Shown here: positions 10,070 through 50,726 of the stretch, one piece after another
How positions within the stretch are numbered: the first letter of the stretch is position 1
How the letters are laid out: every line of letters starts with the position of its first letter
Assembly: GCA_965263355.1 (NCBI GenBank)
Contig: CBDHHL010000032.1
Coordinates: 2,720,001-2,784,000, forward strand
From: Leptolyngbyaceae cyanobacterium
Lineage (GTDB): Bacteria; Cyanobacteriota; Cyanobacteriia; Phormidesmidales; Phormidesmidaceae
Reading direction: 5' to 3'
DNA: 64,000 nucleotides
Made by a program: the position numbers and the translations under genes
The notes under the pieces: model-generated
Seen by the model: only the letters and a program-made list of their open reading frames with translations
Databases searched by the model: none
Told to the model about the DNA's origin: nothing

Positions 10070-10154
10070 ACCTTTTATCAGGCTGCACCTTTTATAAGGC
10101 TGTACCTTTTATCAGGCTGCACTTTTTATCAGGCTGCACCTTTTATCAGGCTGC
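10070..10154. repeat. Five tandem 17-bp repeats
   Basis: Consensus ACCTTTTATCAGGCTGC at 10070, 10087, 10104, 10121, 10138. Confidence 0.95.
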
Positions 10155-10185
10155 AGCCTTCAATTAATATCGGGACATTCTAGAT

Positions 10186-17660: not shown

Positions 17661-17807
17661 AAGCTTTCTGGATAACTCCGACTCTGGGGGTATTATCCAG
17701 AAAGTTTCTGGGTTAATTGCTTATAAGGTGTTTATCCAGAAAGTTTCTGGATAACTCCGGCTGGAAGGTATTTATCCAGACTTAGTCTGGATAACTCATA
17801 GTTAGGC
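17661..17807 (+). other. attI-like integron site with upstream palindromic direct repeats
   Basis: GGATAAC-5 bp-GTTAGGC (17789-17807); TTATCCAGA..TCTGGATAAC units at about 40-bp period; first cassette follows. Confidence 0.6.
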
Positions 17808-18530
17808 GCGCGACTCGAAGTCGTTCGGGGGAGTTGGAGAGACTCCCAAATGACTCTCCCCGCCAGTGTTCAGGCGGATGTCCGCCTCGGAATGTTCGAC
17901 CAGTAATGGGAGGGCAGCATCAGCAGACGAGGTTAAATGTCGCAGTATCTTCTGAGCCAACAAGAGGGTGCAGGCTAGGGCAAGATTGCTAAGGATAACG
18001 CAAGTGAATCCTTGATGAGGCTTCGTTAATGTGAGTTCTCGAAATGGCTGATACGAGAATTTTGGAGCATATGGGGGTTGGTAGCGTCTAAATACCAATC
18101 AAGAACACCCCGCTCTCGGAGTAAAGAGGAATCCTAAAGCAATCATATCTCCACCCCGTGCGGAACGAGGAAACCCCGATAGAGTCCTGAAAATACTTTA
18201 TTTTCCAGGTAAGCGGAGGGCAACCAAAGCTGAACTCTCTAGCGGGCACAGGATATCCCAAGAAGCGAAAGCTGCCAGCCGAAAAACCGGAATTCATCAG
18301 ATAGGGCATTTGCCAACCTGAAACTCGTGGGATAGGTGATGGACGATGAAACTTAACTGATTGGGAAAAGTTAGGTGCAAGCTTCGGCTTGTAAACGTAA
18401 CCATCAGGACAATCTGAAAAGGTTGTTAAGAATCGGAAAAACTGAATTTCAAGACATTGCTTGATATACAGTGAAAGTTGTACGTACGGTTCTGAACGGG
18501 ATATATTTAAAACCTGCTTCCTTACCCGAC
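17808..18530 (+). mobile_element. ORF-less group II intron, copy 1 (deletions in the 3' part including DV/DVI)
   Basis: Near-identical to 18531-19298; starts GCGCGAC, ends CCTTACCCGAC. Confidence 0.8.
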
Positions 18531-19298
18531 GCGCGACTCGAAGTCGTTCGGGGGAGTTGGAGAGACTCCCAAATGACTCTCCCCGCCAGTGTTCAGGCGG
18601 ATGTCCGCCTCGGAATGTTCGACCAGTAATGGGAGGGCAGCATCAGCAGACGAGGTTAAATGTCGCAGTATCTTCTGAGCCAACAAGAGGGTGCAGGCTA
18701 GGGCAAGATTGCTAAGGATAACGCAAGTGAATCCTTGATGAGGCTTCGTTAATGTGAGTTCTCGAAATGGCTGATACGAGAATTTTGGAGCATATGGGGG
18801 TTGGTAGCGTCTAAATGCCAATCAAGAACATCCCGCTCTCGGAGTAAAGAGGAATCCTAAAGCAATCATATCTCCACCCCGTGCGGAACGAGGAAACCCC
18901 GATAGAGTCCTGAAAATACTTTATTTTCCAGGTAAGCGGAGGGCAACCAAAGCTGAACTCTCTAGCGGGCACAGGATATCCCAAGAAGCGAAAGCTGCCA
19001 GCCGAAAGGCAACCGGAATTCATAACGGGGCAGATAGGGCATTTGCCCAACCTGAAAGGGGGCTGACGTGGGATAGGTGATGGACTTGAATGAAGGTGAG
19101 ATGAAACTTAACTGATTGGGAAAAGTTAGGTGCAAGCTTCGGCTTGTAAACGTAACCATCAGGACAATCTGAAAAGGTTGTTAAGAATCGGAAAAACTGA
19201 ATTTCAAGACATTGCTTGAGCCGTATACAGTGAAAGTTGTACGTACGGTTCTGAGGGGAGGAAGCGGGATATATTTAAAACCTGCTTCCTTACCCGAC
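18531..19298 (+). mobile_element. ORF-less group II intron, copy 2 (intact DV/DVI)
   Basis: Domain V GAGCCGTATACAGTGAAAGTTGTACGTACGGTTC (19218-19251, AGC triad, GAAA loop); DVI and 3' end ACCCGAC; no RT ORF. Confidence 0.9.
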
Positions 19299-19323: not shown

Positions 19324-20190
19324 GTGAGAACCAATCATCCAACCCGACATCAGGTGAAAAGAATTGTACGAAAAGCAGCCCAGAAGATCCTAGGCTTTGA
19401 GCCAGCATTGCCGGCGTTAGAAGCCAAAGTAGCAACCAGCATCTCCGATAATCAACGATACCCCCAAGCCTGTCTTCGAGCTGCAAATGACTATCGACTC
19501 TTTAATTCATTTAGGCAGAGTCATGATTACACACAGATTCTTGAGCATGTCTCCCATGATCAAGGGGCTGCATATCTGGATGAGATAAAGAGATGGCCTG
19601 ACGTGTTTAGCGCACTTCCTGATATAGCCCATAACGATGATTACGGCGGGCCTGTTCTTCATTCTTATCCTGGAATCGCTCCGATATCTCCCAGCACACT
19701 TAGATATGCCAAAGTCTTGTGTGACTTATATAGCTTGTTTGGCTCTCTGGATAACTTTCATATTGCTGAGATTGGCGTTGGCTACGGAGGGCAATGCCGT
19801 GCCATAAATTCAACATCATCGCCAAGTAGTTACACACTTATTGACTTGCAGCCAGTTCTTCAGCTTTCACAGAGATACTTGGACTACTACATCTTGAATT
19901 CACAGCTAGTTTATTCAACCATGAACCAGCTGGCAACCCATGAATATGACTTACTGATTAGCAATTATGCCTTCACCGAGCTTCCAAGGGCAGTTCAGGA
20001 TGTTTATCTCTCTAGGGTCGTTCTGCCTTCGATTCGTGGGTATATTACATATAACCAGATATCTCCAGACTCGTTTATGTCCTATACATCAGATGAGCTG
20101 CTTGAGATGATTCCAGGCTCGGCCAGAGTCGACGAGGTTCCTCTCACTCATCCCATGAACTGTATAATTGTCTGGGGCCAGAATGGCTAA
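19324..20190 (+). CDS. Putative sugar O-methyltransferase, gene cassette
   Basis: SAM motif 'IAEIGVGYGG', 'YTLIDL', 'DLLISNYAFTEL'; stop TAA lies inside the attC R'' GGCTAAC. Confidence 0.8.
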   Translation: MRTNHPTRHQVKRIVRKAAQKILGFEPALPALEAKVATSISDNQRYPQACLRAANDYRLFNSFRQSHDYTQILEHVSHDQGAAYLDEIKRWPDVFSALPDIAHNDDYGGPVLHSYPGIAPISPSTLRYAKVLCDLYSLFGSLDNFHIAEIGVGYGGQCRAINSTSSPSSYTLIDLQPVLQLSQRYLDYYILNSQLVYSTMNQLATHEYDLLISNYAFTELPRAVQDVYLSRVVLPSIRGYITYNQISPDSFMSYTSDELLEMIPGSARVDEVPLTHPMNCIIVWGQNG

Positions 20191-20468
20191 CATAGGCCCT
20201 GAGGCGGACGAGGTCAATAGCAAATGCTAAAATTCTTTTTCTGCTTTAGCTTTAGCGCGGATTCAGACGTTCAAAATTGACCTAATAGTCAGGTGTTCAG
20301 GGAGACTGAACCTGCGCTATTAGATGGGGCTGCGTTGCTGAATGATCATTGATACGGGTTAGCTGTTCATAAGATATTTCTCCAAGTGACTGCATAGAGT
20401 GCTCGATCTTGTTTTGGTTGTTACTGTTTTTATTGCTTGTTTTCAAGTGCAATTTGTTCTTCTTGCAC

Positions 20469-21752
20469 TTATTGTTTAGGTTGTTGTTGAACGCCTAATA
20501 GCTTTACTAGTGGTGATTTTTTACGTCTCAGTGCAGCCAGATATTTCTCCTCGTCATAGGGTACACCATCTTGCCAACAACGCCAGAGAATTCTCCCCCA
20601 CTTATAGGCCAAGGCTCGAATCGCTTTTTGATGTGACTTACCCTTTAGTCGTTGTTGTTGATAAAACGCTTGTGACCAAACCGAGCGAGGCCTGGCATGA
20701 GCAACCCACTCGACAAAGGTTTGTCTTAGAAAGATGGGGCAAGACCAACGCCAATGAACCCATCGCTTTTTGCCACTCTCTTCTTTGACTGGCGCGATGC
20801 CAATGTAACTCAAAAAAGACTGAGCGCAATTAAAGCGAGTTCGGTCTTCACCAAAGGCCGCTAACAATCGTGGCGCTAAATGAGGCCCAGCCCCTGGCAA
20901 TGCCTTAAAAAGTTCTGCATCCGGCAGCGATTCAAATAACGAGGCAATTTGACGCTCAAACACAATCAATTGCGACAAGACTACTTTCAATAAAGCGACT
21001 AAGCCTTGCATTAACGCTTGGGCTGGAATGGTGATAGCGTCGTCTCGCGTCAAGGGTGGCCCAGCGTCTTGAATTTGCTGAGTTCGCCGTTGAATCGTGG
21101 TTTTGCGAATGATGTGATGGCTACGAAAGAAGTCTCTCAAGACATCAGCTGTAGCAGCTTGAGCCTCTTGTAAATTGGGAAACTGTTCAAGGAATTCACA
21201 AAACGCAATGGTGTCTTTATCTTCAAACCAGTCGAGCACTTGAGGAAAATAGGATTTGAGTGCGGCGGTGATCCGATTCGTCAGCCGGACCTTCTCACCC
21301 ACTAACATGCGACGGGACTCAACCCATTGTCTCAATGCACGATGCTTCGGACAACCTGATGTCCAGATATCAAGTTTTTCACCATGTTTTTGCATCAATT
21401 CGACGATCAGTTTGGCATCGATGGGATCCGATTTGGCCCGCGAGGGCTGAAACGCTTTGCGATAGTTCGCGACCGTTCGAGGATTAACGGGCACCAGCAC
21501 CAAATTCTCGTATTGACATAGGCCATAAAGGAGGGGGCCGCGTTTCTGCTCCAACCCAACCAGCAACTTGGACTCTCCATAGGTTTTTCGTAAGCGATTG
21601 ACCCAATCTGCAATGGATTGGGGCTTGGATTGAATCGTGCAATGCTCCCAGGTTTCGTTCTGGCAGTCATAGAGCGCAATATCATGTTTACGATCTGCCC
21701 AGTCAATCCCGATATAAGCCGCATATGCTGTTGGACTTTGATTGAGTTTCAT
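20469..21752 (-). CDS. IS110 family transposase/recombinase
   Basis: DEDD: 'IGIDW', 'GLEQ', 'AKSDPIDA'; 'LPGAGPHLAPRLL'; catalytic Ser motif 'EESGK'. Confidence 0.95.
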   Translation of the reverse strand: MKLNQSPTAYAAYIGIDWADRKHDIALYDCQNETWEHCTIQSKPQSIADWVNRLRKTYGESKLLVGLEQKRGPLLYGLCQYENLVLVPVNPRTVANYRKAFQPSRAKSDPIDAKLIVELMQKHGEKLDIWTSGCPKHRALRQWVESRRMLVGEKVRLTNRITAALKSYFPQVLDWFEDKDTIAFCEFLEQFPNLQEAQAATADVLRDFFRSHHIIRKTTIQRRTQQIQDAGPPLTRDDAITIPAQALMQGLVALLKVVLSQLIVFERQIASLFESLPDAELFKALPGAGPHLAPRLLAAFGEDRTRFNCAQSFLSYIGIAPVKEESGKKRWVHWRWSCPIFLRQTFVEWVAHARPRSVWSQAFYQQQRLKGKSHQKAIRALAYKWGRILWRCWQDGVPYDEEKYLAALRRKKSPLVKLLGVQQQPKQ

Positions 21753-21789
21753 TGTGCTAAATTGAGGGTGTTTTTGTTTGACGGAGAGT

Positions 21790-22080
21790 CTGCCACCAGT
21801 CGCCTTGCGAAGTGATTATGGAAAGGGTTATTTCCCTGCTCCCTGAGGATTCGTTGGGCAGCGATTGGACTGGCTTGAAGGGCGATTCGATATGTTAGTA
21901 GTCATCTTCTGACTGGCGCTGCATAGTCGTCCCCCCAAGCTAGCAGATTCTCTCCTTTCTTGACTCTATGCTTTTTTCCAGATTTAGAACATCTAAAGGG
22001 AGGAGCGATACGATATGTTAGTAGACATCTATACTGTCGTCCAATGCATAGTCGTCTCCTCCCATTTTTCTATGCTCGTC
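21790..22080 (-). ncRNA. Predicted bridge RNA with two target loops and one donor loop
   Basis: Stem-internal loop-stem units at about 21998-22063, 21872-21941 and 21807-21854; loop 7-mers match attC and the element junction. Confidence 0.75.
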
Positions 22081-22260
22081 CCCCCATAATCCAGATGCAG
22101 AAGACGGGAGTATGGGCTGGCTTCACTGCCGAGATTCTGGCCCGCTTCTGATCTGGAGCGTTAGGCTGCATCCCATACAGAATCCAGTTCCCTACTGACT
22201 CCTCACTTCTGACTTCTCGCATCGAGAAACCGTCTCGCTTTATATTAATACCCTTGAAGC

Positions 22261-25200
22261 TTATTCCTCAGGGCAAGCTTCACGAATTGCCGCACGTACA
22301 GCATTCGCAAGTAGCTGAACTTGAGGAGATTTCATTATCCTATAGTGATTACCTGGAATATGAACAATACCAAACTCTCCTGTAAGCACTGTGTCCCAGC
22401 CCCGATCATCGGTTTCCTCCTCTGCAGAGCAGAGTATCACTCGACCACCATAGGGTTGCACCTGATATCGTGCTAATGCCGTCTGATTAGCTTTGAAGAT
22501 GCGGAATAGATAGGCCATTTGCGTAGGCGTCATTTCCGGTGGTAGTAAGTTCATCCCCTGGGCAACGGCAAAGAGGTGTTCCAGCTGAGCATTAGGTGCG
22601 AGTTTTGCCAGTTTCAATCGATCTAACGACAGCTCACTATCAAACAAACCATTTAAATCAGTGATTAAAGACTGTAAATCTGCCGTGCCAATTTCCTCTG
22701 ATGTCGCCGATTTTGATGCCTCTATAGGGCTGGCTATTACCTGTGGCGTATAGCTATCAATCAGTACAACAAGCGCTACAGCTTCTCCGATAGATTGAAG
22801 CTGTTGAGCCATTTCTATGGCAATAACACCGCCCATTGACCATCCTGCTAAGTAATAAGGGCCATGGGGTTGAACGCTTTTTAAGGCCTTAATATAAGTC
22901 ATGGCCATCGTTTTAATTGAGTCTAAAGGCGTAACGTTATGATATGGTTCTGGTGATTGAAGACCGTACAGCGGTTGGTCTCGACCCAAATGATGGGCTA
23001 ATTCGGCGTAGCAGAAAACATTTCCACCCACTGGATGAATACAAAAGAGTAAGGGCAAAGTTCCATGGGGCTGGATCGGAACGAGGGGAGAGTGGTCTAC
23101 AATCGCATTTTGGCTGTTCAGTAGTCGAGCTTGGGCTTCAATGGTGGGATCAGTAAAGAGCACTGGCAATGGTAAATTAACTCCCAACTCTTGTTCTACT
23201 TGAGCCATTAGTCGCACCGCTAACAGGGAATGTCCCCCTAGCTCAAAGAAATCATCGTGTACTCCGACACTATCAAGGTTGAGGACTGCCGACCAAATTT
23301 GGGATAGTTGAAATTCTAAAGTGGTACGGGGTGGGGTAAAACTTACAGGAAAAGAGAGATCGACTTTAGGCCGGGGAAGAGTGCGACGATCAACTTTACC
23401 ATTGGGCGTCAAAGGTATTGCCTCCAAACGGATAAATGCACTGGGCACCATATAAAGGGGTAACTTAGTTTTAACGAATTCGCGCAACTGACCAATTGTC
23501 GATTCTCTCTTAGTGACAACATAGGCAATCAGGCGTTTATCTTCTGGGATATCTTCTCGAACAGTAACAACTGTTGAACTGACGTCTGGGTGTGTAGCTA
23601 AAACTGTTTCTATTTCTCCAAGCTCTATACGAAAACCCCGGATTTTAACTTGATTGTCAATTCGGCCCAGAAACTCAATGTTCCCATCTTGAAGATAACG
23701 TGCTTTATCTCCAGTATCATAAAGAATAGCATCTGGGTGAACACTAAAGGGATTTTGAACAAACTTCTGGGCAGTTTTTATCGGATCGTCATACCCCACA
23801 GCCAAACATTCTCCTCCAATATATAAAAAGCCAGGCACCCCTATCGGGCAGGGGGTCAGGCAAGAATCTAAGATATAATACTGTGCATTTTGGATGGGTC
23901 TGCCATAGGGAATGCTGGTTAAATTCTGATTGATAGATTCGATCCGATAATAATTCGACCAAATAGTTGCTTCGGTTGCTCCACCCAGACTGACAAGAAG
24001 AATGCTGGGAAATACTTTCTTCACCTGCTCAGGCAAGGCTACTGGAATCCAGTCACCACTCAAGAAGCCTAACCGGAGGGAACTGTTTGCTATGGATTTA
24101 GATGGCAAGAACGAAATCAATTGTTGAAGGGTTGCTGGGGTAGAATCCCAAAAGGTAATTGACTCCTCACAGAGAATATCAGCCACCTTCCGAGGATCTT
24201 GTAATTCTAAATCTGAAGCTACTCGAATTGACCCACCAGCCGCTAGCAAGCCAAAGATATCGTAAACAGATAAGTCAAAACACAAAGAGGTAACAAACAG
24301 TAGGCGATCGTCAACACTCACATTAAAAGTCTGGTTGACCCAATCAATTAAGTTGACAGCAGATCTATGACGTACGATGACGCCTTTGGGTACACCAGTA
24401 GACCCCGACGTATAGATAACATAAGCCGTATTATTCGGCATTACTGATGTTTCGGGATTTCGAGTGGACATTTGTGATAAATGCCAGTTTGTTGCCCAGT
24501 GTTTCTGTAGTACAGTCAAAGCAACTTGCTGTCTATCATTGCTTTCAGTGTTATGTTTTTTAATGATCACATCGTATCGATAGCGAAGTTCATTTTCAAA
24601 TCCCTGCTCTCGCTTAAGAACCGAAATCTCAGCAATAGGCTCTAATTGAACAGCTAAATCCCAGAAAAATTTCTCATCTACATATAGCTCACTACCCAGA
24701 TTAGTTTTCGCCTGGATAGGGTGTTCACCATCCTGATTAGACCTAAAGGCTATCAATGATTGTTCAAACTCGTCTTTGCGGCGAGCGTCCATGATATCTG
24801 ATAGCAAGATCGCTCCTCCTGGAGCTAAGCGTCTTACAGCAAGATCAAGAACGTGCTGTAAATAAAAAGCTCCTGGGAAAAACTGAACCGTACTCGCGAA
24901 GATAATAAGGTCAAAGGGGCCATCTTCAATGGAACCAATCTCATCCGCAAAAGCCGTCACGAGCTTAATAAAATTCCAATTATTCTCCCGAAGAATCTCA
25001 GCGTTACGTGCTTGAGTGATTTCTGAAGGATCAACACCAACATAGAGATCAACCTCAGGAGCAATTGCGAACATAATTTCTCCTGAACCACAGCCAATCT
25101 CTAGCACTCGTTTCCCGCTTCCAAAATATGGTTTCGCTAATCCAACAACGTGACATTTATACTCATCAACTTCGGACTCGGAAAAAGGCTGACTGGTATA

Positions 25201-28200
25201 GCTGCTAATAAATCCACCTGCCGTGACGCGATCGCTAGCCTGCTGGGCTACCCAATCCCATAACGATCGCACAGCCTTACGATCAATTTTTTCAGGATGG
25301 GGGGTGGGATCATCTATATCCAGGCAGATGACATGGGTTAGTTGTGAGTATTTCCATAGCAACTCTTGTGCAGTTCGCAGGTATTTTTGTTGGGTGATAA
25401 GACAGCTTACTGCTTGGGATGTAATAATCTTTTCTACTCGCGCAATTGGCCATTGAGGATCAAAAGGAATGTAAGCTCCACCGGCTTTTATTGCACCCAT
25501 CACGGCAGTTGGAATATTCGCAGAACGGTTCAAATAGATACCAATCTTCACTTCTGGGCCAACTCCGAGTGTTTGTAAGTAGTGTGCGAGTTGATTGGCG
25601 CGAACGTTTAGCTCCTGATAAGTCAGTTGTCTCTGATTAAACAGAATTGCCACTGCATCTGGACGCTGTTTCACTTGGGCTTCAAATAACTGATGAATGC
25701 ATTTATCCTTAGGGTAAGGGGCTTCAGTTTGATTCCATTCAACCAACAATTGGTGCCGTTCTATAGCCGTGAGCAAGGGTAGTTCTGTCACTGATTGTTG
25801 AGGGTTAGCGACAATCGCCCTCAATAGGGTCTCAAAATGCCCCACCGCTCGCTGAATCGTTGCTGTATCAAACAGGTCTTGATTATATTCCCAATAACCA
25901 ATTAGCCTATTATCCCGTTCCTCCAAGGAGAGAAACAGGTCAAACTTGGCGCGACCACTTTCCATTTGCAGCCACTCAAATCTAATTCCTGGCAGATTTA
26001 AGGGTTCCATGGGTGCATTTTGCAGGGCGAACATGACCTGAAAAAGAGGCGTATGACTGAGACTGCGTTCCGGTTGTAGTGCTTCTATTAACTGTTCAAA
26101 GGGCAAGTCTTGGTGGGCATGGGCATCTAACGCGGTTTGCCGGACTTGGGCCAAGAGTTGAGGAAAGGTCAGATTGTCGTCGAAGCGCGATCGTAACACC
26201 AACGTATTCACAAAGAAGCCAATTAATCCTTCAATTTCACTACGATTGCGGTTGGCAATGGGGGTGCCCACCAAAATATCGGTTTGACCGCTGTAGCGGT
26301 AGAGTAGGCTACTAAAAGCCGCAAACAACGTCATAAAAAGGGTTACCCCTGATTGTTGACTCAGATGTTTAAGCTGTTCCGTAAGGGTATGATCCAGTTG
26401 AAAAAAGATGCGATCGCCTTGATTAGACTGCACCGTCGGTCGAGGATAATCCGTAGGCAAGTCCAATAATGGGGGCGCATCGGCTAACTGTTGCCGCCAA
26501 TACTCCAATTGTGGCGCAAGAGATTGAGCGGTGGCAGGTTGTCGCTGCCAAGCGGCAAAGTCGGCATATTGAATGGCCAGTTCAGGTAAGGGTGAGGAGT
26601 CCCCTTCGATGAATGCTCCGTAGAGCACCTCCAATTCATGGACCAATACTCCCGTAGACCAACCATCGGTAATAATATGATGCATAGTGAGAAGCAACAT
26701 ATAGTCATCCTTCGCCAATTGCATCAACATGACCCGTAACAAGGTATCGTGAGCCAGATCAAAGGGTTGTTGTACCGCATCTTGACCCAGCTGTTGGACC
26801 TCAGCCATTTGTTGTTTTGGCTCAACATGCTGTAAATCTACTATCGGCAGTGGTAAATCTCTATGTGGCGATATTACCCGGAGCGGTTTCCCCTCAACAG
26901 ATTTGAAATTTGTTCGTAAGCTATCGTGTCGTCGGACAATTTCTAGTAGAGCTTGATGGAGTGCCTCCACATGCAGCGTCCCTGACAAACGTAAGCCCTC
27001 CTGCTCATTGTAGGCGACACTCTGGTCTTGTAATTGATCTAAAAACCAGAGACGTTGCTCAGCGAAGGATAGGGGTAAGTCTCCTTGACGGGACATCTGT
27101 TGAATCAGTGTTCGCTCTGAGGGCGTAGGTTTGGATTCGGTGTCCAGAATATCTTGGCTCAGTTGGGCGATGGTAGGAGATTCAAATAACCGATGCAGCG
27201 ACAGTTCCCGTTGGAAAACATCCCGCACTCGTGAAATTAGCTGGGTGGCTTGAATTGAATCTCCGCCCAGCATAAAAAAATTATCCAAAACCCCAATTTC
27301 GTTCAGCCCCAACACGTCGGCCCAAATATTAGCTAATAGCTCCTCCATAGGGGTCCGGGGATTCACCAGCTTGACATCTAGAACAGGACGGGAGCGATCG
27401 GGGGCTGGCAAATGCTGACGATCGACCTTACCGCTGGGGGTAAGGGGCAATTGATCGAGGACCACAAATGCCGAGGGAACCATGTAATTGGGCAGGGTTT
27501 CCGTCAGAAACTGACGCACCTGAGGAATCAGCTGATTTGTTTTCTGGCCACTGTATGGTTGGTTCGCATAGGCGTGCCAAGGTTTGGCCTTATTAGGAAT
27601 CTCACCGGGGGGCTGATCAACGGCTCCATGAGCCCTATCACCCAGGATAACGTTTGTGCCCTGCCGTACAAAGATGACATCGTAGTAGCCCTCATTGCCT
27701 TTACTATCCCAAGTGAGATGAACTTGGTACGGAATTTGATCTTGCAACGTCCACCAGACTTCCGGTTCAATGGCCTTGCTCTTGGCATCGTGTAAGGTAA
27801 TCTCTTGGCGAAGTTCCTTTACCGTTGGGGGACAATGATCCACATTTGACAATAGCGACAGGGCGATAACGTCAGACCCAATTCGGGCATTCGGCACATG
27901 GTTGACCACTAATAGGTCAGGGGTCATGTCCACTAGTTTTTGGCGGATGGCATGGATTGCCTCCTCGCCATCTTCTTCACACCAGTCCAGAAAAACAGGT
28001 GCGGTAGGTGTGGCAAATTCTTTATCGATGTGCAACACCACATCGTAACGAAATCGGGTCAGCTCATTTTGATGATATCCCCGCTTTAGGTGAATGTCTA
28101 CATGGCTAATGCGGGGCAGATAGGCCTTTAATGCTGTGAAAAACTCAGGATCAACCATCAATCGTTGTTCACGGGTGCGACGATCGCGAATACGTCTGCG

Positions 28201-30243
28201 TAGGTCTGCTACCGGGAGAGAATCTGGCGATTGATAGAGCTGCACTGAGGTATGGAACATTTCCAACAACGGTAAACTCAAAATATCTCCCAGGAAAATT
28301 TGTCCGCCTGGTTGAATTCTATCCACTGCGGTTTCAATAACTGACACCAAATAATCAATACTGGGGAAGAATTGAATCACTGAATTAGAGATAGCTGTAT
28401 CAAAGGATGTCGTCACAATCTCTCCCAGGGTATGGGCAGCAGCCTGTTGCAGAACTACAGATGCTGCAACTGAAGGTTCAAGGATTTGACCGGCCTTAAG
28501 TTGTCGCTCTAGATAGCGAATGGCCTCACCGGATAAATCTGTAGCATAGTAGTGTTGACACTTAGGTGCCATGCGAAAAAGCAGTAGCCCTGTGCCACAG
28601 CCAATTTCTAAAAGGCGCTGGGGTTGCAATGATAAGATTCGCTCTACCGTATAGTCCACCCATTCCTGTACATGATTTGGGTCCAGATCTGTGCCTGTGT
28701 AGGAGTCGTTCCAGCCGCCAATGTGAAAATCAGCATCCTGCTCCTGATCAGGTTGAATATAGGCTTCATCCCAAATTTGCCGCCATTGTTCCGTTTGTTC
28801 AACGACATCCTGAGTTGCCTTGACCTTAACCTCAGAGCCGGAAACAACATAGGCTACTAAGCGCTTTTGACCGCTGGGTTCTGCTCGCGCTGTTACAACA
28901 GCTTGGGCAATATCAGGATGTTGTAACAGGGTTGCTTCGATTTCTTCCAACTCAATGCGATAGCCCCGTATCTTAACTTGGTGATCAATACGGCCTAAAC
29001 ATTCAATGGTGCCATCGGTATGGTACCGGGCTAAATCTCCAGTTTTATAAAGGCGATCACCCTCCTCTAAATCAGCGTCCTGGGCAAAGGGACTGGGAAT
29101 AAATTTTTTAGCGGTCAACTCCGGACGATTGAGATATCCTCGAGCGACCCCTATGCCCCCAATGTGCAATTCTCCAACTTCACCAACAGCGACAGGGGTT
29201 TGATTCTCATCTAGAATGTAAGCCTGGGTATTACTAATCGTCCGCCCAATAGGGATGGTCGCATCCGCCGATTGCACCCGATGTATCGTGGCCCATACCG
29301 TAATTTCAGTAGGACCATATAAATTCCACAACGATCCCCCCTTAGGTAATAACTGGGCCGCTAGCTCTGGTGATAAGCGGTCCCCAGTAGAAATGATTTT
29401 CAAGTCACGACACCCTGACCATTTAGCATTCATGAGCATTTGCCAGGTCGCAGGGGTAGCTGACATCACTGTCACACGGTGTTGATGAATCAACTGAATT
29501 AACTGATCAGGATCTTGGGTTGCTGTTTGACTGGCCACGACCACCTTACCGCCAACGGTCAATGGACCAAGCAATTCTGGAACTGAAACGTCGAAAGAAA
29601 TGGTTGTAACTGCAATAGACGTATCCGTGTCCCTTAACCCTGGGCAAATGGCAATCGCCAATAGTAGATTCACCACGGAACGATGAGCGATCTGTACCCC
29701 CTTAGGTTTTCCGGTCGAACCAGAGGTGTAGATAATGTAGGCTAAGTTACTAGGTACAGCAGTAGAAATGGGATTAATGGGAGAATGTTGGCCGATGTGT
29801 TGTTTAGTGCTACCAAGGCAGATTAGTGTAATGTTCTTGGCAAGGTGTATCTGGACATTAGTGGCTGGCGATTGAGTTACAATAATTTTTAGACCCGCAT
29901 CTTGCACCATAAAAGCAAGGCGATCACTAGGATAGGCTGGATCTAAAGGAACATAAGTGCCACCAGCTTTCATGATGCCGAGCATCGCAACGACCATTTC
30001 TAAGGAGCGTTCAATGCAAAGTCCCACCAGTACCTCTGGACCTACCCCCAAGGATTGCAGATAATGGGCAAGTTGATTGGCCTGTTGATTTAATTCCTGA
30101 TAGGTAAGTTGCTGCTCCTCAAAAACCAGTGCCACAGCATCCGGAGCCTGCATCACTTGGGCTTCAAACATTTCATGAATGCATCGATTCCAAGATGTGC
30201 TGGTATCAGTATTGCGCATTTCTGAGGCGTTAGCTTCTTGCAT
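22261..30243 (-). CDS. Bimodular NRPS: A(MT)-T-C-A(MT)-T-TE
   Basis: YTSGSTG x2, LEIGCG x2, LGGDSI, HHIITDG, LGGHSL, GWSMGG. Confidence 0.95.
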   Translation of the reverse strand: MQEANASEMRNTDTSTSWNRCIHEMFEAQVMQAPDAVALVFEEQQLTYQELNQQANQLAHYLQSLGVGPEVLVGLCIERSLEMVVAMLGIMKAGGTYVPLDPAYPSDRLAFMVQDAGLKIIVTQSPATNVQIHLAKNITLICLGSTKQHIGQHSPINPISTAVPSNLAYIIYTSGSTGKPKGVQIAHRSVVNLLLAIAICPGLRDTDTSIAVTTISFDVSVPELLGPLTVGGKVVVASQTATQDPDQLIQLIHQHRVTVMSATPATWQMLMNAKWSGCRDLKIISTGDRLSPELAAQLLPKGGSLWNLYGPTEITVWATIHRVQSADATIPIGRTISNTQAYILDENQTPVAVGEVGELHIGGIGVARGYLNRPELTAKKFIPSPFAQDADLEEGDRLYKTGDLARYHTDGTIECLGRIDHQVKIRGYRIELEEIEATLLQHPDIAQAVVTARAEPSGQKRLVAYVVSGSEVKVKATQDVVEQTEQWRQIWDEAYIQPDQEQDADFHIGGWNDSYTGTDLDPNHVQEWVDYTVERILSLQPQRLLEIGCGTGLLLFRMAPKCQHYYATDLSGEAIRYLERQLKAGQILEPSVAASVVLQQAAAHTLGEIVTTSFDTAISNSVIQFFPSIDYLVSVIETAVDRIQPGGQIFLGDILSLPLLEMFHTSVQLYQSPDSLPVADLRRRIRDRRTREQRLMVDPEFFTALKAYLPRISHVDIHLKRGYHQNELTRFRYDVVLHIDKEFATPTAPVFLDWCEEDGEEAIHAIRQKLVDMTPDLLVVNHVPNARIGSDVIALSLLSNVDHCPPTVKELRQEITLHDAKSKAIEPEVWWTLQDQIPYQVHLTWDSKGNEGYYDVIFVRQGTNVILGDRAHGAVDQPPGEIPNKAKPWHAYANQPYSGQKTNQLIPQVRQFLTETLPNYMVPSAFVVLDQLPLTPSGKVDRQHLPAPDRSRPVLDVKLVNPRTPMEELLANIWADVLGLNEIGVLDNFFMLGGDSIQATQLISRVRDVFQRELSLHRLFESPTIAQLSQDILDTESKPTPSERTLIQQMSRQGDLPLSFAEQRLWFLDQLQDQSVAYNEQEGLRLSGTLHVEALHQALLEIVRRHDSLRTNFKSVEGKPLRVISPHRDLPLPIVDLQHVEPKQQMAEVQQLGQDAVQQPFDLAHDTLLRVMLMQLAKDDYMLLLTMHHIITDGWSTGVLVHELEVLYGAFIEGDSSPLPELAIQYADFAAWQRQPATAQSLAPQLEYWRQQLADAPPLLDLPTDYPRPTVQSNQGDRIFFQLDHTLTEQLKHLSQQSGVTLFMTLFAAFSSLLYRYSGQTDILVGTPIANRNRSEIEGLIGFFVNTLVLRSRFDDNLTFPQLLAQVRQTALDAHAHQDLPFEQLIEALQPERSLSHTPLFQVMFALQNAPMEPLNLPGIRFEWLQMESGRAKFDLFLSLEERDNRLIGYWEYNQDLFDTATIQRAVGHFETLLRAIVANPQQSVTELPLLTAIERHQLLVEWNQTEAPYPKDKCIHQLFEAQVKQRPDAVAILFNQRQLTYQELNVRANQLAHYLQTLGVGPEVKIGIYLNRSANIPTAVMGAIKAGGAYIPFDPQWPIARVEKIITSQAVSCLITQQKYLRTAQELLWKYSQLTHVICLDIDDPTPHPEKIDRKAVRSLWDWVAQQASDRVTAGGFISSYTSQPFSESEVDEYKCHVVGLAKPYFGSGKRVLEIGCGSGEIMFAIAPEVDLYVGVDPSEITQARNAEILRENNWNFIKLVTAFADEIGSIEDGPFDLIIFASTVQFFPGAFYLQHVLDLAVRRLAPGGAILLSDIMDARRKDEFEQSLIAFRSNQDGEHPIQAKTNLGSELYVDEKFFWDLAVQLEPIAEISVLKREQGFENELRYRYDVIIKKHNTESNDRQQVALTVLQKHWATNWHLSQMSTRNPETSVMPNNTAYVIYTSGSTGVPKGVIVRHRSAVNLIDWVNQTFNVSVDDRLLFVTSLCFDLSVYDIFGLLAAGGSIRVASDLELQDPRKVADILCEESITFWDSTPATLQQLISFLPSKSIANSSLRLGFLSGDWIPVALPEQVKKVFPSILLVSLGGATEATIWSNYYRIESINQNLTSIPYGRPIQNAQYYILDSCLTPCPIGVPGFLYIGGECLAVGYDDPIKTAQKFVQNPFSVHPDAILYDTGDKARYLQDGNIEFLGRIDNQVKIRGFRIELGEIETVLATHPDVSSTVVTVREDIPEDKRLIAYVVTKRESTIGQLREFVKTKLPLYMVPSAFIRLEAIPLTPNGKVDRRTLPRPKVDLSFPVSFTPPRTTLEFQLSQIWSAVLNLDSVGVHDDFFELGGHSLLAVRLMAQVEQELGVNLPLPVLFTDPTIEAQARLLNSQNAIVDHSPLVPIQPHGTLPLLFCIHPVGGNVFCYAELAHHLGRDQPLYGLQSPEPYHNVTPLDSIKTMAMTYIKALKSVQPHGPYYLAGWSMGGVIAIEMAQQLQSIGEAVALVVLIDSYTPQVIASPIEASKSATSEEIGTADLQSLITDLNGLFDSELSLDRLKLAKLAPNAQLEHLFAVAQGMNLLPPEMTPTQMAYLFRIFKANQTALARYQVQPYGGRVILCSAEEETDDRGWDTVLTGEFGIVHIPGNHYRIMKSPQVQLLANAVRAAIREACPEE

Positions 30244-30644
30244 ATCCTGTACATCTAGTTACTGCAGTATCCTATACTAGGGGATTAGGAGTATGAAGAG
30301 TGTTTTTCATCACTGCATAAAAAAAGGATACAAGACGTCGCCAAAGCACCGTCAAAGACAGGCGGAGATGCCTAACATAGTCCCTGAGGCGGACGAGGTC
30401 AATAGCAAAGGCTAAACTTCTTTTTCTAGTTAAGCTTGAGTCTGTATTCAGACATGCAGGATTAACCTGATACTCAGTTGTTCAGGGAGGAGATTGTTCT
30501 CTCTCAGAGAGGGCTGCTTTGCTGTATGACCGTGAATACGGGTTAGCTGTTCATCGGATATTGCTCCAAGTGATTACATCGAGTGCTCGATCTTGTTGTT
30601 GTAGTTGTAGTAGTTGTTGTTATCTGCCTTTAAAGTATTACTTG

Positions 30645-31988
30645 TTATTTTTGTGATTGTTGTTTAGGTTGTTGTTGAACGCCCAATAACTTTGCTAGTG
30701 GGGACTTTTTGCGTCTCAGTACAGCTATGTATTTTTCTTCATCATAAGGGACACCATCTTGCCAACAGCGCCAGAGAATTCTTCCCCACTTATAGGCCAA
30801 GGCACGAATCGCTTTAGGATGACTTTTACCTGATTGCTTCTGCTGTAGATAAAAGGCTTGGGACCAAGTCGAATGTCGACGCGCTTGATCGACCCATTCA
30901 ACAAAGGTTTGTCTGAGGAAAATTGGACATGACCAACGCCAATGAACCCAGCACTTTTTGCCGCTTTCCTCCTTGACAGGGGCAATACCGATATAGCTCA
31001 TAAAGGCCTGAGCCGACGTAAAGCGCGTGCGGTCTTCGCCAAAGGCGACTAACAGTCGTGGCGCTAGATGCGGTCCGGCTCCCGGTAAGGCCTGAAATAA
31101 CTCGGCATCTGGCAATGACTCAAACAGGTTAGCAATCTGTTGGTTAAATTCAGTTAATTGTTGTAAAACAACCTTAAGCAGAGTGATTAGACTTAAAGTC
31201 AGTGTTTTAGCCGGTATCACAATGGCGTCATCCTCAGTCAGCGGTGGGCCTGCGTCTTTGATTTGCTGAATCCTACGCTGAATCGTCGTCCGTCGAACAA
31301 CATGATGGCGATGGAAAAACTGAGTGATTGTTTCAGGGGTCGCTGCTTGGGCCGCTTTGACATCGTCGAACTGCTCAATAAACTCACAAAAGACCTGCGT
31401 ATCTTTATCTCTAAACCAATCAAGAACTTGAGGAAAATAGGATTTGAGTGATGCGGTGATACGGTTAGTCAAACGCACCTTTTCGCCCACTAACATCCGA
31501 CGCGATTCTACCCATTGTCTGAGGGCACGATGTTCAGGGCACCCTGCCACCCAAGCCTTTAGTTTATTGCCATGCTTACGCATTAACTCCACCAGAATAC
31601 GGGCATCTACGGGGTCGGATTTGGCTCGTGATGGCTGAAACGCTTTTCGATAGTTGGCCACCGTTCTGGGATTAATGGGAAACAGCACTAAATTGTCATA
31701 CTGACACAGCGCATAGAGTAGAGGCCCTCGCTGTTGTTCAAGAGCAACCGCAATTTTGCCAGGACCATACCGTTCTCGGAGTTGTGTGACCCAATCCAGA
31801 ATAGCTTGAGGATGGTTTTGAATAATACTATTTTTCCAGGTGTCTGTTGCACAGTCATATACCGCAATGTCATTTTTTCGGTCAGCCCAGTCAATGCCCA
31901 CATAGGCCACATAGTCAATCGACTCGATGGCCTTAGGCATAGGTGTTTCTGAAGCTGAGTCTGTAGTTATGGTTGGGGCTATTGTCAT
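30645..31988 (-). CDS. IS110 family transposase/recombinase (diverged paralog of 20469-21752)
   Basis: 'VGIDW', 'ALEQ', 'AKSDPVDA', 'EESGK'. Confidence 0.95.
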   Translation of the reverse strand: MTIAPTITTDSASETPMPKAIESIDYVAYVGIDWADRKNDIAVYDCATDTWKNSIIQNHPQAILDWVTQLRERYGPGKIAVALEQQRGPLLYALCQYDNLVLFPINPRTVANYRKAFQPSRAKSDPVDARILVELMRKHGNKLKAWVAGCPEHRALRQWVESRRMLVGEKVRLTNRITASLKSYFPQVLDWFRDKDTQVFCEFIEQFDDVKAAQAATPETITQFFHRHHVVRRTTIQRRIQQIKDAGPPLTEDDAIVIPAKTLTLSLITLLKVVLQQLTEFNQQIANLFESLPDAELFQALPGAGPHLAPRLLVAFGEDRTRFTSAQAFMSYIGIAPVKEESGKKCWVHWRWSCPIFLRQTFVEWVDQARRHSTWSQAFYLQQKQSGKSHPKAIRALAYKWGRILWRCWQDGVPYDEEKYIAVLRRKKSPLAKLLGVQQQPKQQSQK

Positions 31989-32029
31989 TGTGTTAGATTA
32001 GAAGCCAATTTGTTTAACAGGGGTACGTC

Positions 32030-32310
32030 TGCTACCTACTTGAAGAGCGAAAAGATTATGGAAGCGATTGAATCCCCTTCCCTGAGAGTTCGTTTAAGAC
32101 AAGTAGGACAAAGACCAGAGGCGAGGCGATATGTTAGTAGTCATTGACTGACGTGCGTTGGATAGTCGTCCTCTAGTCCTAGCAGACAAGCCCCATTTTT
32201 TGACTTTACGCTTTTCTTGACAGTTGGGATGAGTGAAGATGAGGAGCGATGCGATATGTTAGTAGACATGCAGGCTGTCGCTCGTTGCATAGTCGTCTCC
32301 TCGGTTCGTC
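32030..32310 (-). ncRNA. Predicted bridge RNA with two target loops and one donor loop
   Basis: Units at about 32241-32302, 32118-32173 and 32047-32093 with the same scaffold as element 1 but different variable guides. Confidence 0.75.
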
Positions 32311-32440
32311 CCCCATAACTGCGTCGGTGCGGACGGAACCAAAGTTATTGCTGAGGATTTAAGGTTATCTGCCGCCGCACAACTTCATCGTTAGCCCAAT
32401 AACCTGAAAAGCAGCTTCACCAGGGAAAAAAGACGCATTA

Positions 32441-34015
32441 ATGGCGAAGAAAACGAAATCAACAAAACAGCAAAAATCCTTTGAGCAAAATCTTTGGGAC
32501 ACCGCCGATAAGCTGCGCGGCACGGTGGAATCTTCTGAGTACAAGCATGTGGTCCTCAGTCTGATCTTCCTGAAATTCGTCAGCGATAAATTCGAGACCC
32601 AGCGCCAGAAGCTCAAGGACGAGGGCATGGGCGACCACCTAGACATGGTCGAGTTCTACGCCAAGGATAATGTCTTCTACCTACCCGAGGCGGCCCGCTG
32701 GTCTACGATCCAAGCGCAATCGAAGCAGGATGATATCGCCCTGCGCATTGATACTGCCCTACATACGGTGGAAAAGACGAATAAGGCGCTGCGCGGTGCG
32801 TTGCCGGATAACTATTTCTCCCGTTTGGGCCTGGATACGGCGAAGCTGGCTTCGTTGATCGATTCCATCAGCGATATCGACACGGTGGCGGACAAAGAAG
32901 AAGACGTGGTGGGCCGGGTCTACGAATATTTTCTCGGCAAGTTCGCGGCGACGGAGGGCAAGGGCGGCGGCGAGTTTTATACCCCTAAGTGTGTGGTTAA
33001 TCTGAACGCGGAGATGATTGAACCTTACCGGGGCAAGATCTACGACCCCTGTTGTGGTTCGGGCGGTATGTTTGTGCAGTCGGTTAAGTTTGTGCAGAGC
33101 CATCATGGCAACCAGAAGGATATTTCGATTTACGGTCAGGAACAGACGGGTACGACCTACAAGCTGGCCAAGATGAACCTGGCAATTCGGGGGATTGCGG
33201 GCAATTTGGGCGAGGTGCCTGCGGATACGTTCTTCAAGGATCAGCATCCGGATCTAAAGGCGGACTTCATCATGGCGAATCCGCCGTTTAACCTGAAGCA
33301 ATGGCGGGCGGATGATGAACTTACGGATGATCCGCGCTGGGCAGGTTATGAGACGCCGCCCACGGGCAATGCCAACTATGCCTGGATTTTGCACATGGTC
33401 AGCAAGCTTTCGGAGAACGGTGTTGCTGGCTTTGTGCTGGCCAATGGTTCGATGAGTACGAACACAAAGGGGGAGGGTGAGATCCGCCAGAAGCTGATCG
33501 AGAACGATCGCGTTGATTGCATGATCGCGCTGCCGGGCCAGCTTTTTTACACGACTCAGATTCCGGTTTGCCTTTGGTTTTTGACGAAGAATAAGCGGGC
33601 GCAGACGGTCACCAGCCACAGCGAAAGTAACTATCGCGATCGCCAGGGCGAAACCCTATTCATTGATGCTCGCAATATGGGCAGCATGGTCGATCGCACC
33701 CACAAGGAACTAACGGCGGCGGATATTGCCACCATCGCCCGTACTTACCATGCTTGGCGGGGGGAGGCGAAGGATGGAGCCTATGAAGACCAGCCGGGGT
33801 TCTGCAAGGCGGCGACGTTGGCGGATATTAAGGCGAATGACTATGTGCTGACGCCGGGGCGGTATGTGGGGGCGGCGGCGCTGGAGGATGATGGGGTGCC
33901 GTTTGAGGTGAAGATGGGGGAGCTGACGCAGCGGTTGTATGGGCAGATGCGGGAAGCGGAGAAGTTGGATGGGGTGATTCGGAAGAATTTGGAGGCGTTG
34001 GGCTATGGGGAGTAG
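32441..34015 (+). CDS. hsdM: Type I R-M methyltransferase subunit
   Basis: 'GEFYTP', 'YDPCCGSGGM', 'ANPPFN'. Confidence 0.95.
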   Translation: MAKKTKSTKQQKSFEQNLWDTADKLRGTVESSEYKHVVLSLIFLKFVSDKFETQRQKLKDEGMGDHLDMVEFYAKDNVFYLPEAARWSTIQAQSKQDDIALRIDTALHTVEKTNKALRGALPDNYFSRLGLDTAKLASLIDSISDIDTVADKEEDVVGRVYEYFLGKFAATEGKGGGEFYTPKCVVNLNAEMIEPYRGKIYDPCCGSGGMFVQSVKFVQSHHGNQKDISIYGQEQTGTTYKLAKMNLAIRGIAGNLGEVPADTFFKDQHPDLKADFIMANPPFNLKQWRADDELTDDPRWAGYETPPTGNANYAWILHMVSKLSENGVAGFVLANGSMSTNTKGEGEIRQKLIENDRVDCMIALPGQLFYTTQIPVCLWFLTKNKRAQTVTSHSESNYRDRQGETLFIDARNMGSMVDRTHKELTAADIATIARTYHAWRGEAKDGAYEDQPGFCKAATLADIKANDYVLTPGRYVGAAALEDDGVPFEVKMGELTQRLYGQMREAEKLDGVIRKNLEALGYGE

Positions 34016-35087
34016 GAAAAGCTCAAAGCTCCAAAAGGGTCAAGGCGCAGACTTACCTGAAACCTCACAACTGGTGCAGGATATCAGACAACTCATTGAT
34101 GGAACCCGTGCGGGGGTAGCAGCTACAGTGAATGCGGGCTTGACCCTGCTGTATTGGCGTGTTGGCGAACGGATTCGCTGTGAAGTGCTCTTGGAAGAAC
34201 GCGCTGAATACGGCCAGAAGATTTTGCCGACACTGTCTGCAAAATTAACGAAGGATTACGGAAGAGGATGGAGTGAGCGTAATCTGGCCTATATGGTTCG
34301 TTTTGTTGAAGTATTTCCACAGATTGAGATTTTGCAGACGCTATGTGCAAATTTGAGCTGGAGCCATTTCAAAGACATTATCTACATTGATGACCCACTG
34401 AAGCGTGAGTTCTATGCGGAGATGTGCCGGGTCGAAGGTTGGAGTGTCCGAACGTTACGGCAAAAAATTGATGGGATGCTCTATGAGCGCACGGCGATCT
34501 CAAAGCAACCTGATGAGGTGATTCAGCATGAGCTAAAGGAACTGAAGGAGGCTGACAAGCTTTCTCCGAATCTGGTCTTTCGTGATCCTTACTTTCTGGA
34601 TTTTCTGGGGCTGAAGGATCGCTACCTAGAGAAGGATTTGGAAGATGCGATTTTGCGAGAGCTGGAAAGCTTTCTGCTGGAGCTGGGCAGTGGGTTTGCG
34701 TTTCTGGCGCGGCAACGGCGTATTCAACTGGATAATGATGACTACTATATCGACCTGCTGTTTTATCATCGCCGCTTAAATCGGCTGATTGCCATCGATC
34801 TGAAGCTGGGGGATTTTAAGGCGGAATATAAGGGGCAGATGGAGCTGTATCTGCGTTGGCTGAGTAAGTATGAAAAGCAAGCGGGGGAGAATGAACCGCT
34901 GGGGCTGATTCTCTGTGCGGGTAAAAAGCAGGAGCTGGTGGAACTGCTGGAGCTAGACCAAGCGGGTATTCATGTGGCGGAGTATTTCACGGAGTTGCCG
35001 CCGAGAAAGTTGCTGGAGGATAAGCTGCATCAAGCCATTGAGAATGCTAGGGAGCGGATTGAAAATAGGGGGAGTGAAGATGAATAA
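34005..35087 (+). CDS. YhcG/DUF1016 PD-(D/E)xK nuclease-domain protein
   Basis: 'LSWSHF', 'RDPYFLDFL', 'LELGSGFAF', 'YIDLLFYHR', 'GQMELYL'. Confidence 0.9.
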   Translation: MGSRKSSKLQKGQGADLPETSQLVQDIRQLIDGTRAGVAATVNAGLTLLYWRVGERIRCEVLLEERAEYGQKILPTLSAKLTKDYGRGWSERNLAYMVRFVEVFPQIEILQTLCANLSWSHFKDIIYIDDPLKREFYAEMCRVEGWSVRTLRQKIDGMLYERTAISKQPDEVIQHELKELKEADKLSPNLVFRDPYFLDFLGLKDRYLEKDLEDAILRELESFLLELGSGFAFLARQRRIQLDNDDYYIDLLFYHRRLNRLIAIDLKLGDFKAEYKGQMELYLRWLSKYEKQAGENEPLGLILCAGKKQELVELLELDQAGIHVAEYFTELPPRKLLEDKLHQAIENARERIENRGSEDE

Positions 35088-35179
35088 GCGGTTAGAACTG
35101 ACCCAGACGCTGTATCGGCAGAGGTTGGAGTCGGAGCGGTTGGATGGGGTGATTAAGGAGAGTTTGGAGGGGTTGGGTT

Positions 35180-40543: not shown

Positions 40544-40627
40544 AGCTAACATTGCGTTGCAACGGCGGAGCATAAGCAGTTGATCAAAGGCTAAAGTTAC
40601 TACCGCCGTTGAACTTCGCCGTTAGCC
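40544..40627 (+). other. Intact attC site
   Basis: AGCTAAC-attgc-GTTGCAAC-GGCGG...CCGCC-GTTGAAC-ttcgcc-GTTAGCC. Confidence 0.85.
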
Positions 40628-50639: not shown

Positions 50640-50726
50640 AGCTAACCAGTCGCTGCACCGGAACGCTCAAACATGGTTACTTCAGTCGCGAAGGTTATCT
50701 ATGTCCGGTGAGCTTAGTCGCTAGGT
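50640..50726 (+). other. attC site with a GCTAG right core
   Basis: AGCTAAC-cagtc-GCTGCACC-GGA...TCC-GGTGAGC-ttagtc-GCTAGGT. Confidence 0.75.

Follow-up and report, generated by a model that had tools for sequence, protein, structure and literature searches.

We analyzed a 64,000-nucleotide stretch of DNA from a Leptolyngbyaceae cyanobacterium (contig CBDHHL010000032.1, positions 2,720,001 to 2,784,000 of the forward strand; hereafter the window, numbered from its first letter), which contains an IS110-family insertion sequence whose left non-coding end probably encodes a guide RNA with a duplicated target-binding loop. The element, E1, is 1897 bp long and lies on the minus strand (20192..22088), its ends ambiguous by a 2-nucleotide (nt) AT found at both junctions. 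Public contigs from one sample (runs X1 and X3) join 20191 directly to 22089 and skip these 1897 bases, two letters (AT) fitting either side, and in the contigs of run X1 the depth of E1 is about 3.5 times that of its flanks. Given this empty-site joint and the raised depth, we conclude that E1 is a mobile, multi-copy 1897-bp insertion. IS110 elements insert precisely at specific sites, with no more than 1-2 nt shared at the junction, and E1 with its empty site behaves in the same way. Its relatives are inserted at the equivalent position of attC-like sites, and its end motifs are common to more than 40 relatives and to E2, a diverged second copy in the window.

The E1 transposase (427 amino acids [aa]; 20469..21752, minus strand) matches the Pfam domains of the IS110 family, DEDD_Tnp_IS110 (PF01548, E 4.4e-27) and Transposase_20 (PF02371, E 2.6e-15), and the E2 transposase has both domains as well. 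Homologues of the E1 protein number in the thousands, the named ones among the matches listed being cyanobacterial, and its similarity to the IS621 transposase is distant (E 1.1e-11). One relative, L002, is almost the same element (95% protein identity).

On the transposase strand, E1 and E2 begin with TATGGGGGGACGAG at the left end and terminate with CTCGTCCGCCTCAGGG(C/A)CTAT at the right end. The left end of E1 (22068..22090, minus strand; set from the sequence and aligned relatives) consists of AT and TATGGGGGGACGAGCATAG, with a subterminal repeat GGGGACGAG, and the right end (20194..20225, minus strand) comprises a donor left-arm CCTCAGGGCCTAT, a subterminal inverted repeat CTCGTCCGCC and a -35-like TTGACC 17 nt from the junction. 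As read from the sequence, GGGGACGAG is set 5 nt in from the left end, and CTCGTCCGC, its complement, 12 nt in from the right end, an arrangement of the kind found in IS1111-type elements, which have subterminal inverted repeats of 7-17 bp. Both TTGAC and CCTCAGGG were invariant in 14 of 14 aligned right ends. A promoter scan found TTGACC, a 17-nt spacer and TATGTT spanning the E1 junction; in an excised circle the -10 element would come from the TAT of each end. Junction promoters assembled from abutted ends are described for these families in the available portion of PMC11187229. The public contigs with this DNA showed no circle junction. While E1 is inserted, the TTGACC of the right end and a TATGTT in the flank (20189-20217, minus strand) make an outward promoter-like site that faces the 3' end of an open reading frame (ORF) at 19324-20190.

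Three RNA modules are predicted upstream of the transposase gene, all on its strand: a donor-binding loop (21805..21857) and two putative target-binding loops, B (21871..21942) and A (21994..22067). Loop A has the 5' guide UGCAUUGGAC and a GACA..UGUC hairpin, loop B has the 5' guide UGCAGCGCCA and an AGUCA..UGACU hairpin, and both have the 3' guide CUAACAU. R1, a covariance model of the target module that we built from 54 modules, scored them at 84.9 bits (A) and 79.7 bits (B). An earlier reading made from the letters of this DNA (the sequence-only reading) had noticed that the same scaffold occurs twice upstream of the transposase, and we found this to be so. With a spacing of about 123-125 nt, 21877-21907 repeats as 22000-22030 (87%) and 21920-21934 as 22045-22059 (93%), and R1 finds two modules in E1 and exactly four in the whole window. 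The 14-mer CGATATGTTAGTAG also occurs four times in the window (21888, 22011, 32127 and 32252, the last two within E2), a count that none of 100 shuffles reached (shuffle mean, 0.26). The variable segments CAATGCA in loop A (22042-22048) and CGCTGCA in loop B (21917-21923) lie exactly where that reading had put them.

The left ends of E1 and E2 each fold as three modules of stem, internal loop and hairpin (z of -3.20 and -2.27), and thus form the structured, non-coding end, beside the recombinase gene and on its strand, that is typical of bridge RNAs. Modules A and B share one plan, in which a basal stem is followed by GACGAC-YA, a 10-nt variable segment starting with UGCA, a 4-bp hairpin, UA-CUAACAU-AUCG and a closing stem, and they are separated by a poorly structured linker of about 50 nt. 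CUAACAU, the 3' guide, is the complement of AT+GTTAG (the right flank plus the junction), and the variable 5' guide corresponds to the top strand of the left flank. The two guides of a target loop would therefore pair with opposite strands, much as the sequence-only reading had proposed.

Covariation across relatives supports this module structure. When the 54 modules were aligned, 81.4% of cells were paired, compared to 36-50% when the partners were slid, and the covariation score of 0.304, against at most 0.162 for slid partners, was reached in none of 500 shuffles. Cells that had changed on both sides of a pair numbered 106, versus 51 in shuffles (0 of 500 reached 106). Hairpin pair 33-45 is AU in 29 modules, of loop-A types, and UA in 24, of loop-B types. 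RNAalifold, run on a MAFFT alignment of the modules, recovered only the hairpin because a 1-nt length difference shifts the 3' stem out of register; the module structure was therefore set by hand.

The third loop has guides that match the element's own ends, as expected of a donor loop, and the identification that the sequence-only reading had made is borne out. Its 3' guide, CCAUAAU, is the complement of AT+TATGG at the left end, its 5' guide CCUCAGGGA is identical to the right end's top strand, and its segment CCUCAGGG is likewise the right end; the motifs ATTATGG (21815-21821) and TCCCTGA (21840-21846) were correctly located. The guide also changes together with the end. In a sister clade the donor 5' guide becomes CUCAGAGG (loci L046, L057 and L118; L numbers denote the loci that we collected), where the right end is CTCAGAGG, an end also found in L119, the same element as L118. 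The correspondence is partial in L030, which has CCUCGAGAGG in the donor loop and CTCAGAGC at the right end. All relatives keep the donor loop, with a near-invariant CGAA/UUCG stem (37-39 of 39 rows per pair) and a hairpin in which all four pairs show compensatory changes among 39 sequences. At five loci (L022, L023, L027, L040 and L041), the last base of the donor 3' guide (CCAUAAC or CCAUAAU) equals the base two before TATGG in five of five cases. In that deeper single-loop clade, this base, normally counted as flank, may belong to a different left boundary or crossover.

E1 interrupts an attC-like site. The left half of the site, GCTAAC plus AT, lies at 20185..20193 (plus strand), where the CTAAC box contains the stop codon of ORF 19324-20190, and the right part of the palindrome, which ends in GTTAGGC, lies at 22089..22167 (plus strand). 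When rejoined, the site forms an imperfect hairpin of about 80 nt (-20.9 kcal/mol, z -3.06) with a bulged 23-pair stem, in which CTAAC at 20187-20191 pairs with GTTAG at 22160-22164. It has the anatomy of an attC site, namely an imperfect palindrome with RYYYAAC/GTTRRRY boxes and unpaired bases. The E2 site is a weaker palindrome (z -0.69), and by eye the flanks of relatives show the same attC-like pattern. The proposal that these elements target attC sites stands as far as the E1 site is palindromic with CTAAC/GTTAG ends, but it does not extend to an integron in the window, where no cassette array is visible and none of the 40 ORFs of at least 100 aa is an integron integrase. Among five host genomes of relatives, three contain an integron integrase (TIGR02249) above the family cut-off, and a broken integron integrase lies within 1-2 kb of the L015 element. 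A segment of the E1 right end (20194-20215; CGTCCGCC, the guide-matched segment, then T) resembles the attC arm at the insertion point (CGTCCGC or GGTCGGTG, the guide-matched segment, then T), as judged on the left flanks of L012, L039, L053, L061 and others. Donor and target may present a similar subterminal motif to the protein.

Two candidate targets in the window are unoccupied. One, TGCAGCGACTG+GTTAG (50642..50657, minus strand; a partial palindrome by eye), begins with the 7 nt that start the E1 loop B guide, and the exact match of CGCTGCA to 50651-50657, adjoining CTAAC, is as the sequence-only reading had reported. The other, TGCAACGCAAT+GTTAG (40546..40561, minus strand), begins with the 7 nt of the E2 loop A guide. 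The flanks of relatives yielded 18 empty attC sites that passed our filter, some of which are element junctions, and the flanks of one locus, L060, hold both site classes, an empty TGCATGGGCGTT site and an occupied ACCAACGCAGT site. The shared AT core that had been proposed exists at E1, where two letters fit both sides, but most relatives share only the T, having TT or GT before TATGG at the left junction and AT before GTTAG at the right.

Bridge RNAs are expected to show covariation between guide and insertion site across related elements, and we found this for 57 insertions. We took as guide the 10 nt after GACGAC-YA and as target 10 nt of left flank, with 0, 1 or 2 nt between them and TATGG; three registers were allowed because the distance from TGCA to the element end varies. 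From 81 elements, 12 without a left boundary or guide and 12 with a duplicate flank were removed, which left 38 two-loop and 19 one-loop insertions. With the best loop of each of the 57, the mean number of matches was 7.12 for the element's own flank and 6.13 for permuted flanks (0 of 10,000 permutations reached the observed value). Each loop also covaried with its own flank when scored alone, both for loop A (6.11 versus 5.53; 2 of 10,000) and for loop B (5.95 versus 5.54; 49 of 10,000), and the one-loop elements (n = 19) behaved similarly (7.0 versus 6.07; 2 of 10,000). Own flanks exceeded permuted flanks at guide positions 2 and 5-8 and gained nothing at positions 9-10, which suggests that about 8 nt are read, close to the 7-mer of the sequence-only reading.

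These results, together with the conservation of the two-loop clade described below, support the claim that the target module is duplicated and separately programmed. Among two-loop elements, the better-fitting loop was A in 18, B in 17 and tied in 3; a fit of at least 8/10 with a lead of at least 2 was seen for loop A in 11 elements and for loop B in 6. Elements with an identical guide pair occupied different sites that fit different loops: L104 fits A at 9/10 and B at 5/10, and L105 fits A at 6/10 and B at 9/10; the same holds for L018 (A 9, B 5) and L004 (A 5, B 7), and for L019 (A 4, B 8) and L077 (A 7, B 4). Where the A guide is of the TGCAT class and the B guide of the TGCA(A/G) class, flanks of the T class fit A in 11 of 11 cases and those of the R class fit B in 11 of 13. 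Unusual guides also stand beside unusual flanks, as in L031 (loop B CGCAACCAGC, flank CGCAACCAG) and L124 (loop A TGCCATGAGC, flank TGCCATG). Another copy of E1, at a loose contig end at 22089 in run X2, has the flank TGCATTGGGA, which matches the loop A guide at 8/10. We also considered that the second loop might read the opposite arm of the same palindrome and rejected this, there being no match by eye in L053, the one locus inspected for it.

The sequence-only reading had suggested that a covariance model be built and the loops of each element counted. We fetched 80 genome and 80 metagenome loci, and R1 found two target modules in 49 of 81 related elements, one in 32 and three in none. Bridge RNAs are defined with one target loop, whereas E1, E2 and 47 other elements have two. 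A search of five host genomes with R1 returned no copies beyond the loci already collected. In a maximum-likelihood tree of 53 transposase sequences (24 of 75 loci were left out for in-frame stops, many element copies being pseudogenes), 20 two-loop rows and the nested single-loop L003 form one clade with support of 100/100, and single-loop clades are placed both sister to it and deeper. A two-loop element whose transposase is 65% identical to that of E1 (L019) falls at the base of the two-loop clade in a quick tree. Given their positions on sister and deeper branches, the single-loop relatives show the state that preceded duplication, and the simplest history that the sequences allow is one duplication and one loss. 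L003 retains a B-type guide, yet the site it occupies (TGCATGGG) is one that A-type guides fit, which would agree with a loss of loop A after insertion. One complete genome holds five copies with identical guide modules (L019, L053, L060, L063 and L077); the transposase frame is intact (434 aa) in just one of them and open for only 155-231 aa in the rest.

Taken together, we consider it likely that the left end of E1 and E2 encodes a bridge RNA whose target-binding loop has been duplicated and the copies programmed separately, a reading built on sequence comparison. E1 and E2 would be RNA-guided IS110-family insertion sequences. Transcription of the left non-coding end, directed towards the transposase gene and probably started by a promoter formed at the circle junction, would yield a bridge RNA that has three binding loops. 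In this RNA, the donor loop would pair with the abutted ends of the excised circle, its 3' guide with the top strand of AT+TATGG. Either of the tandem target loops could pair with an attC-like site, the shared 3' guide CUAACAU on the conserved GTTAG box and the differing 5' guides, with about 8 specific nt (UGCAnnnn), on the variable arm beside that box. Loop A would usually be set to 'TGCAT..' sites and loop B to 'T(G/C)CA(A/G)C..' sites, so that a single RNA would address both classes of a target that is variable and repeated. A recombinase tetramer would work with the donor loop and whichever target loop had found a site; we infer both the binding of the RNA to the transposase and the alternative use of the loops in the reaction. 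We offer, as a doubtful extension, the idea that one transcript with two independently programmable target loops and one donor loop has been fixed in the clade by selection and, because each target loop could seat a recombinase dimer, may also synapse two different attC sites and rearrange the DNA between them, the element then being an RNA-guided shuffler of integron cassettes besides an insertion sequence.

Several observations weigh against a duplicated, separately programmed target loop. The effects are modest, about 0.4-1.0 extra matches of 10, as TGCA is common to nearly all guides and sites. The flank of E1 itself does not discriminate between its loops. The sequence-only reading had held that loop A fits the occupied site at 5/7; this is right, but loop B also scores 5/7, and on the 10-mer each fits at 6/10. 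Some insertions fit neither loop well in the allowed registers (A and B scores of 5 and 4 in L010, 4 and 5 in L063, 6 and 6 in L050, and 3 and 2 in L001), and the distance from the flank TGCA to the element end ranges over 9-12 nt, which a strict base-pair ruler would not predict. The permutations ignore kinship, so related elements in related hosts count as if they were independent, and the 3' guide, being invariant, contributes no covariation. An Rfam scan of 20000-22600 (E up to 10) gave no match except a chance one to Xist, and none of the listed public runs with this DNA is recorded as RNA.

A different arrangement would be two RNAs, in which loop A is made or processed as a separate, target-only RNA that serves a second, circle-independent transfer pathway, alongside a standard bridge RNA made of loop B and the donor loop. 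The poorly structured linker of about 50 nt between A and B is compatible with such processing. However, insertions fit B as often as A (17 versus 18), so both loops appear to act as ordinary target guides, and the promoter scan found no internal promoter-like site between A and B on the minus strand; we regard the two-RNA arrangement as quite unlikely. Alternatively, the pair of loops might bring together an A-class and a B-class attC site, with the recombinase deleting, inverting or moving the DNA between them instead of, or besides, insertion. According to the available portion of PMC11208160, bridge recombinases join any two loop-specified sites, with insertion, excision or inversion as the outcome. 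Loops A and B share a 3' guide and a junction base, both site classes occur in the flanks of one locus (L060, with TGCATGGGCGTT empty and ACCAACGCAGT occupied), and E1 and E2 flank an 8-kb nonribosomal peptide synthetase (NRPS) gene that lies between two attC-like sites. Yet no rearrangement product appeared in the contigs, where the sole joint is a plain empty site, and insertion alone explains the covariation, and we think such synapsis very unlikely to be what the loops do.

Still less probable, in our view, is that only one target loop works and the other is a tolerated tandem duplicate without a role in target choice. The E1 site fits both loops equally poorly, and L003, which lost a loop, has a transposase frame that is still open over the matched region; both points speak for this reading. 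Against it, the stems of both loops are intact in 49 elements and the loops score high with the model there, two loops have been kept across a clade (support 100/100) that has L019 (65% identity) at its base, and covariation with the element's own flank is seen for A and for B taken singly (2 and 49 of 10,000). L003 itself, which has only a B-type loop, sits in a TGCATGGG site fitting A-type guides, as if it had inserted before the loss. The repeats might instead act as DNA, serving the transposase as reiterated binding sites near the left end, a layout known from transposons that have several such sites close to their ends. In favour of this, each module has a 5' stem (GGAGACGAC) similar to the subterminal repeat GGGGACGAG, and TCGTCCCCCCA is found both at 21927-21937 and at 22076-22086. 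A variable segment that tracks the flanking target would be unexpected in a protein-binding repeat, however, helices are kept by compensatory changes (106 versus 51 cells; 0 of 500 shuffles), and the modules share their anatomy with the donor loop, whose guides match the element ends. There is only a very slim chance that the repeats are no more than DNA sites.

A bridge RNA with two target loops would resemble those of IS621 and ISCro4 (PMC11208160, PMC11208158) in its place within the left non-coding end, upstream of the gene for a DEDD recombinase, and in having stem-flanked internal loops with a central hairpin and separate donor and target loops. E1 differs from these in its two tandem target loops where they have one, in its distant transposase of 427 aa (E 1.1e-11), in its long subterminal inverted repeat and palindromic attC-like target, and in a junction base that, in the E1 family generally, is a single shared T and not a fixed dinucleotide. 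In the IS110-type order, as given by the left and right target guide (LTG/RTG) logic in the available portion of 10.1101/2025.10.25.684509, pairing is between left guide and bottom strand and between right guide and top strand. The available portion of PMC11208160 notes that bridge-RNA structures are diverse and that donor binding in IS1111 involves multiple loops.

The closest named relatives are the ISEsa2-family elements of enterobacterial plasmids (42-44% protein identity), which belong to the same transposase lineage. By eye, in L184, one target-type loop comes first in the left end of these elements, and a homologous donor loop (ACGAAU-ACUCAGGGC ... UUUCG) follows. Unlike E1, they have a single target loop, different guides and a different target, and a very short right non-coding end, and R1 does not recognise their target loop (best score, 8.7 bits). 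Single-loop cyanobacterial relatives (L041, L061, L118 and L030) have the same module, 3' guide, attC-like targets and donor loop as E1, but only one target loop.

An IS1111-attC group whose members enter integron attC sites at one end and in a single orientation was reportedly described by Tetu & Holmes in 2008 and Post & Hall in 2009. The IS1111-attC/seekRNA elements ISKpn4 and ISPst6, as presented in the available portion of PMC11187229, are like E1 in having subterminal inverted repeats and an RNA from a non-coding region that selects the target. In the same source, the seekRNA lies downstream of the transposase gene with the top-strand complement first, and a single RNA has one target specificity, whereas the guides of E1 lie upstream, in the IS110-type order, with two target loops. 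E1 thus mixes IS1111-like subterminal repeats and an IS1111-attC-like target with upstream guides. We also considered a guide RNA downstream of the E1 transposase, in the IS1111 style, and rejected it. Among 14 relatives, that region of about 280 nt is unconserved but for its last 30 nt or so and gave no consensus structure; given this and the upstream position of all guide modules, the guide RNA is not of the downstream IS1111 type.

The sequence-only reading had known of no description of this architecture, and our full-text literature searches likewise turned up no bridge RNA or seekRNA with two target loops, within a scope of partly available texts that left out supplementary figures, which could bear on the matter. 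Two target loops go unmentioned in section 2.4 of a 2026 preprint that models 32,190 bridge RNAs, and in the available portions of PMC11208160, of PMC11187229, of a 2026 review and of the CazIS110 preprint (10.1101/2025.10.25.684509). Described bridge RNAs and seekRNAs have one target specificity per RNA. The second, separately programmed target loop would be the new feature, and the comparison across relatives supports it.

The second copy, E2, lies on the minus strand at about 30379..32317 and has the same three loops as E1, with stretches that are 72-84% identical. Its transposase is encoded at 30645-31988, its donor loop at 32045-32097, loop B at 32110-32181 and loop A at 32235-32308 (all minus strand). 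E1 and E2 have the same orientation, flank the 8-kb NRPS gene (22261-30243, minus strand) and each sit in an attC-like site, and a contig from run X1 extends from the E2 right end over the NRPS gene and past the empty E1 site. Directly after the E2 attC-like site begins a type I restriction-modification operon (32441-36094) with a YhcG/DUF1016 nuclease gene between hsdM and hsdS. Farther along are an ISL3-family transposase that occupies two ORFs and a DDE transposase of the ISAZ013 type, which is split (36111-39072), together a cluster of further mobile elements near the candidate attC-like sites at 39399 and 40546, and split N6_Mtase fragments (48948-50129). The window also contains a 17-nt tandem array of four overlapping copies (10070-10160), perfect 300-nt direct repeats 723 nt apart (17807-18829) and a perfect 64-nt tandem duplication (53754-53881).

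If E1 and its relatives do use a bridge RNA with two separately programmed target loops, the bridge scaffold tolerates a second target module, and this would be a way for a site-specific element to handle a variable family of targets, with a fixed guide reading the box and two alternative guides reading the arm. The reading predicts that loop A reads the TGCAT class and loop B the T(G/C)CA(A/G)C class, with about 8 nt being specific. For engineering, it would provide a ready design by which one RNA and one donor could reach two genomic sites, and a test case for whether target-to-target rearrangements can be driven by two target loops. For integron biology, it would add a family of RNA-guided elements, widespread in cyanobacteria, with attC-like sites as their homing targets.

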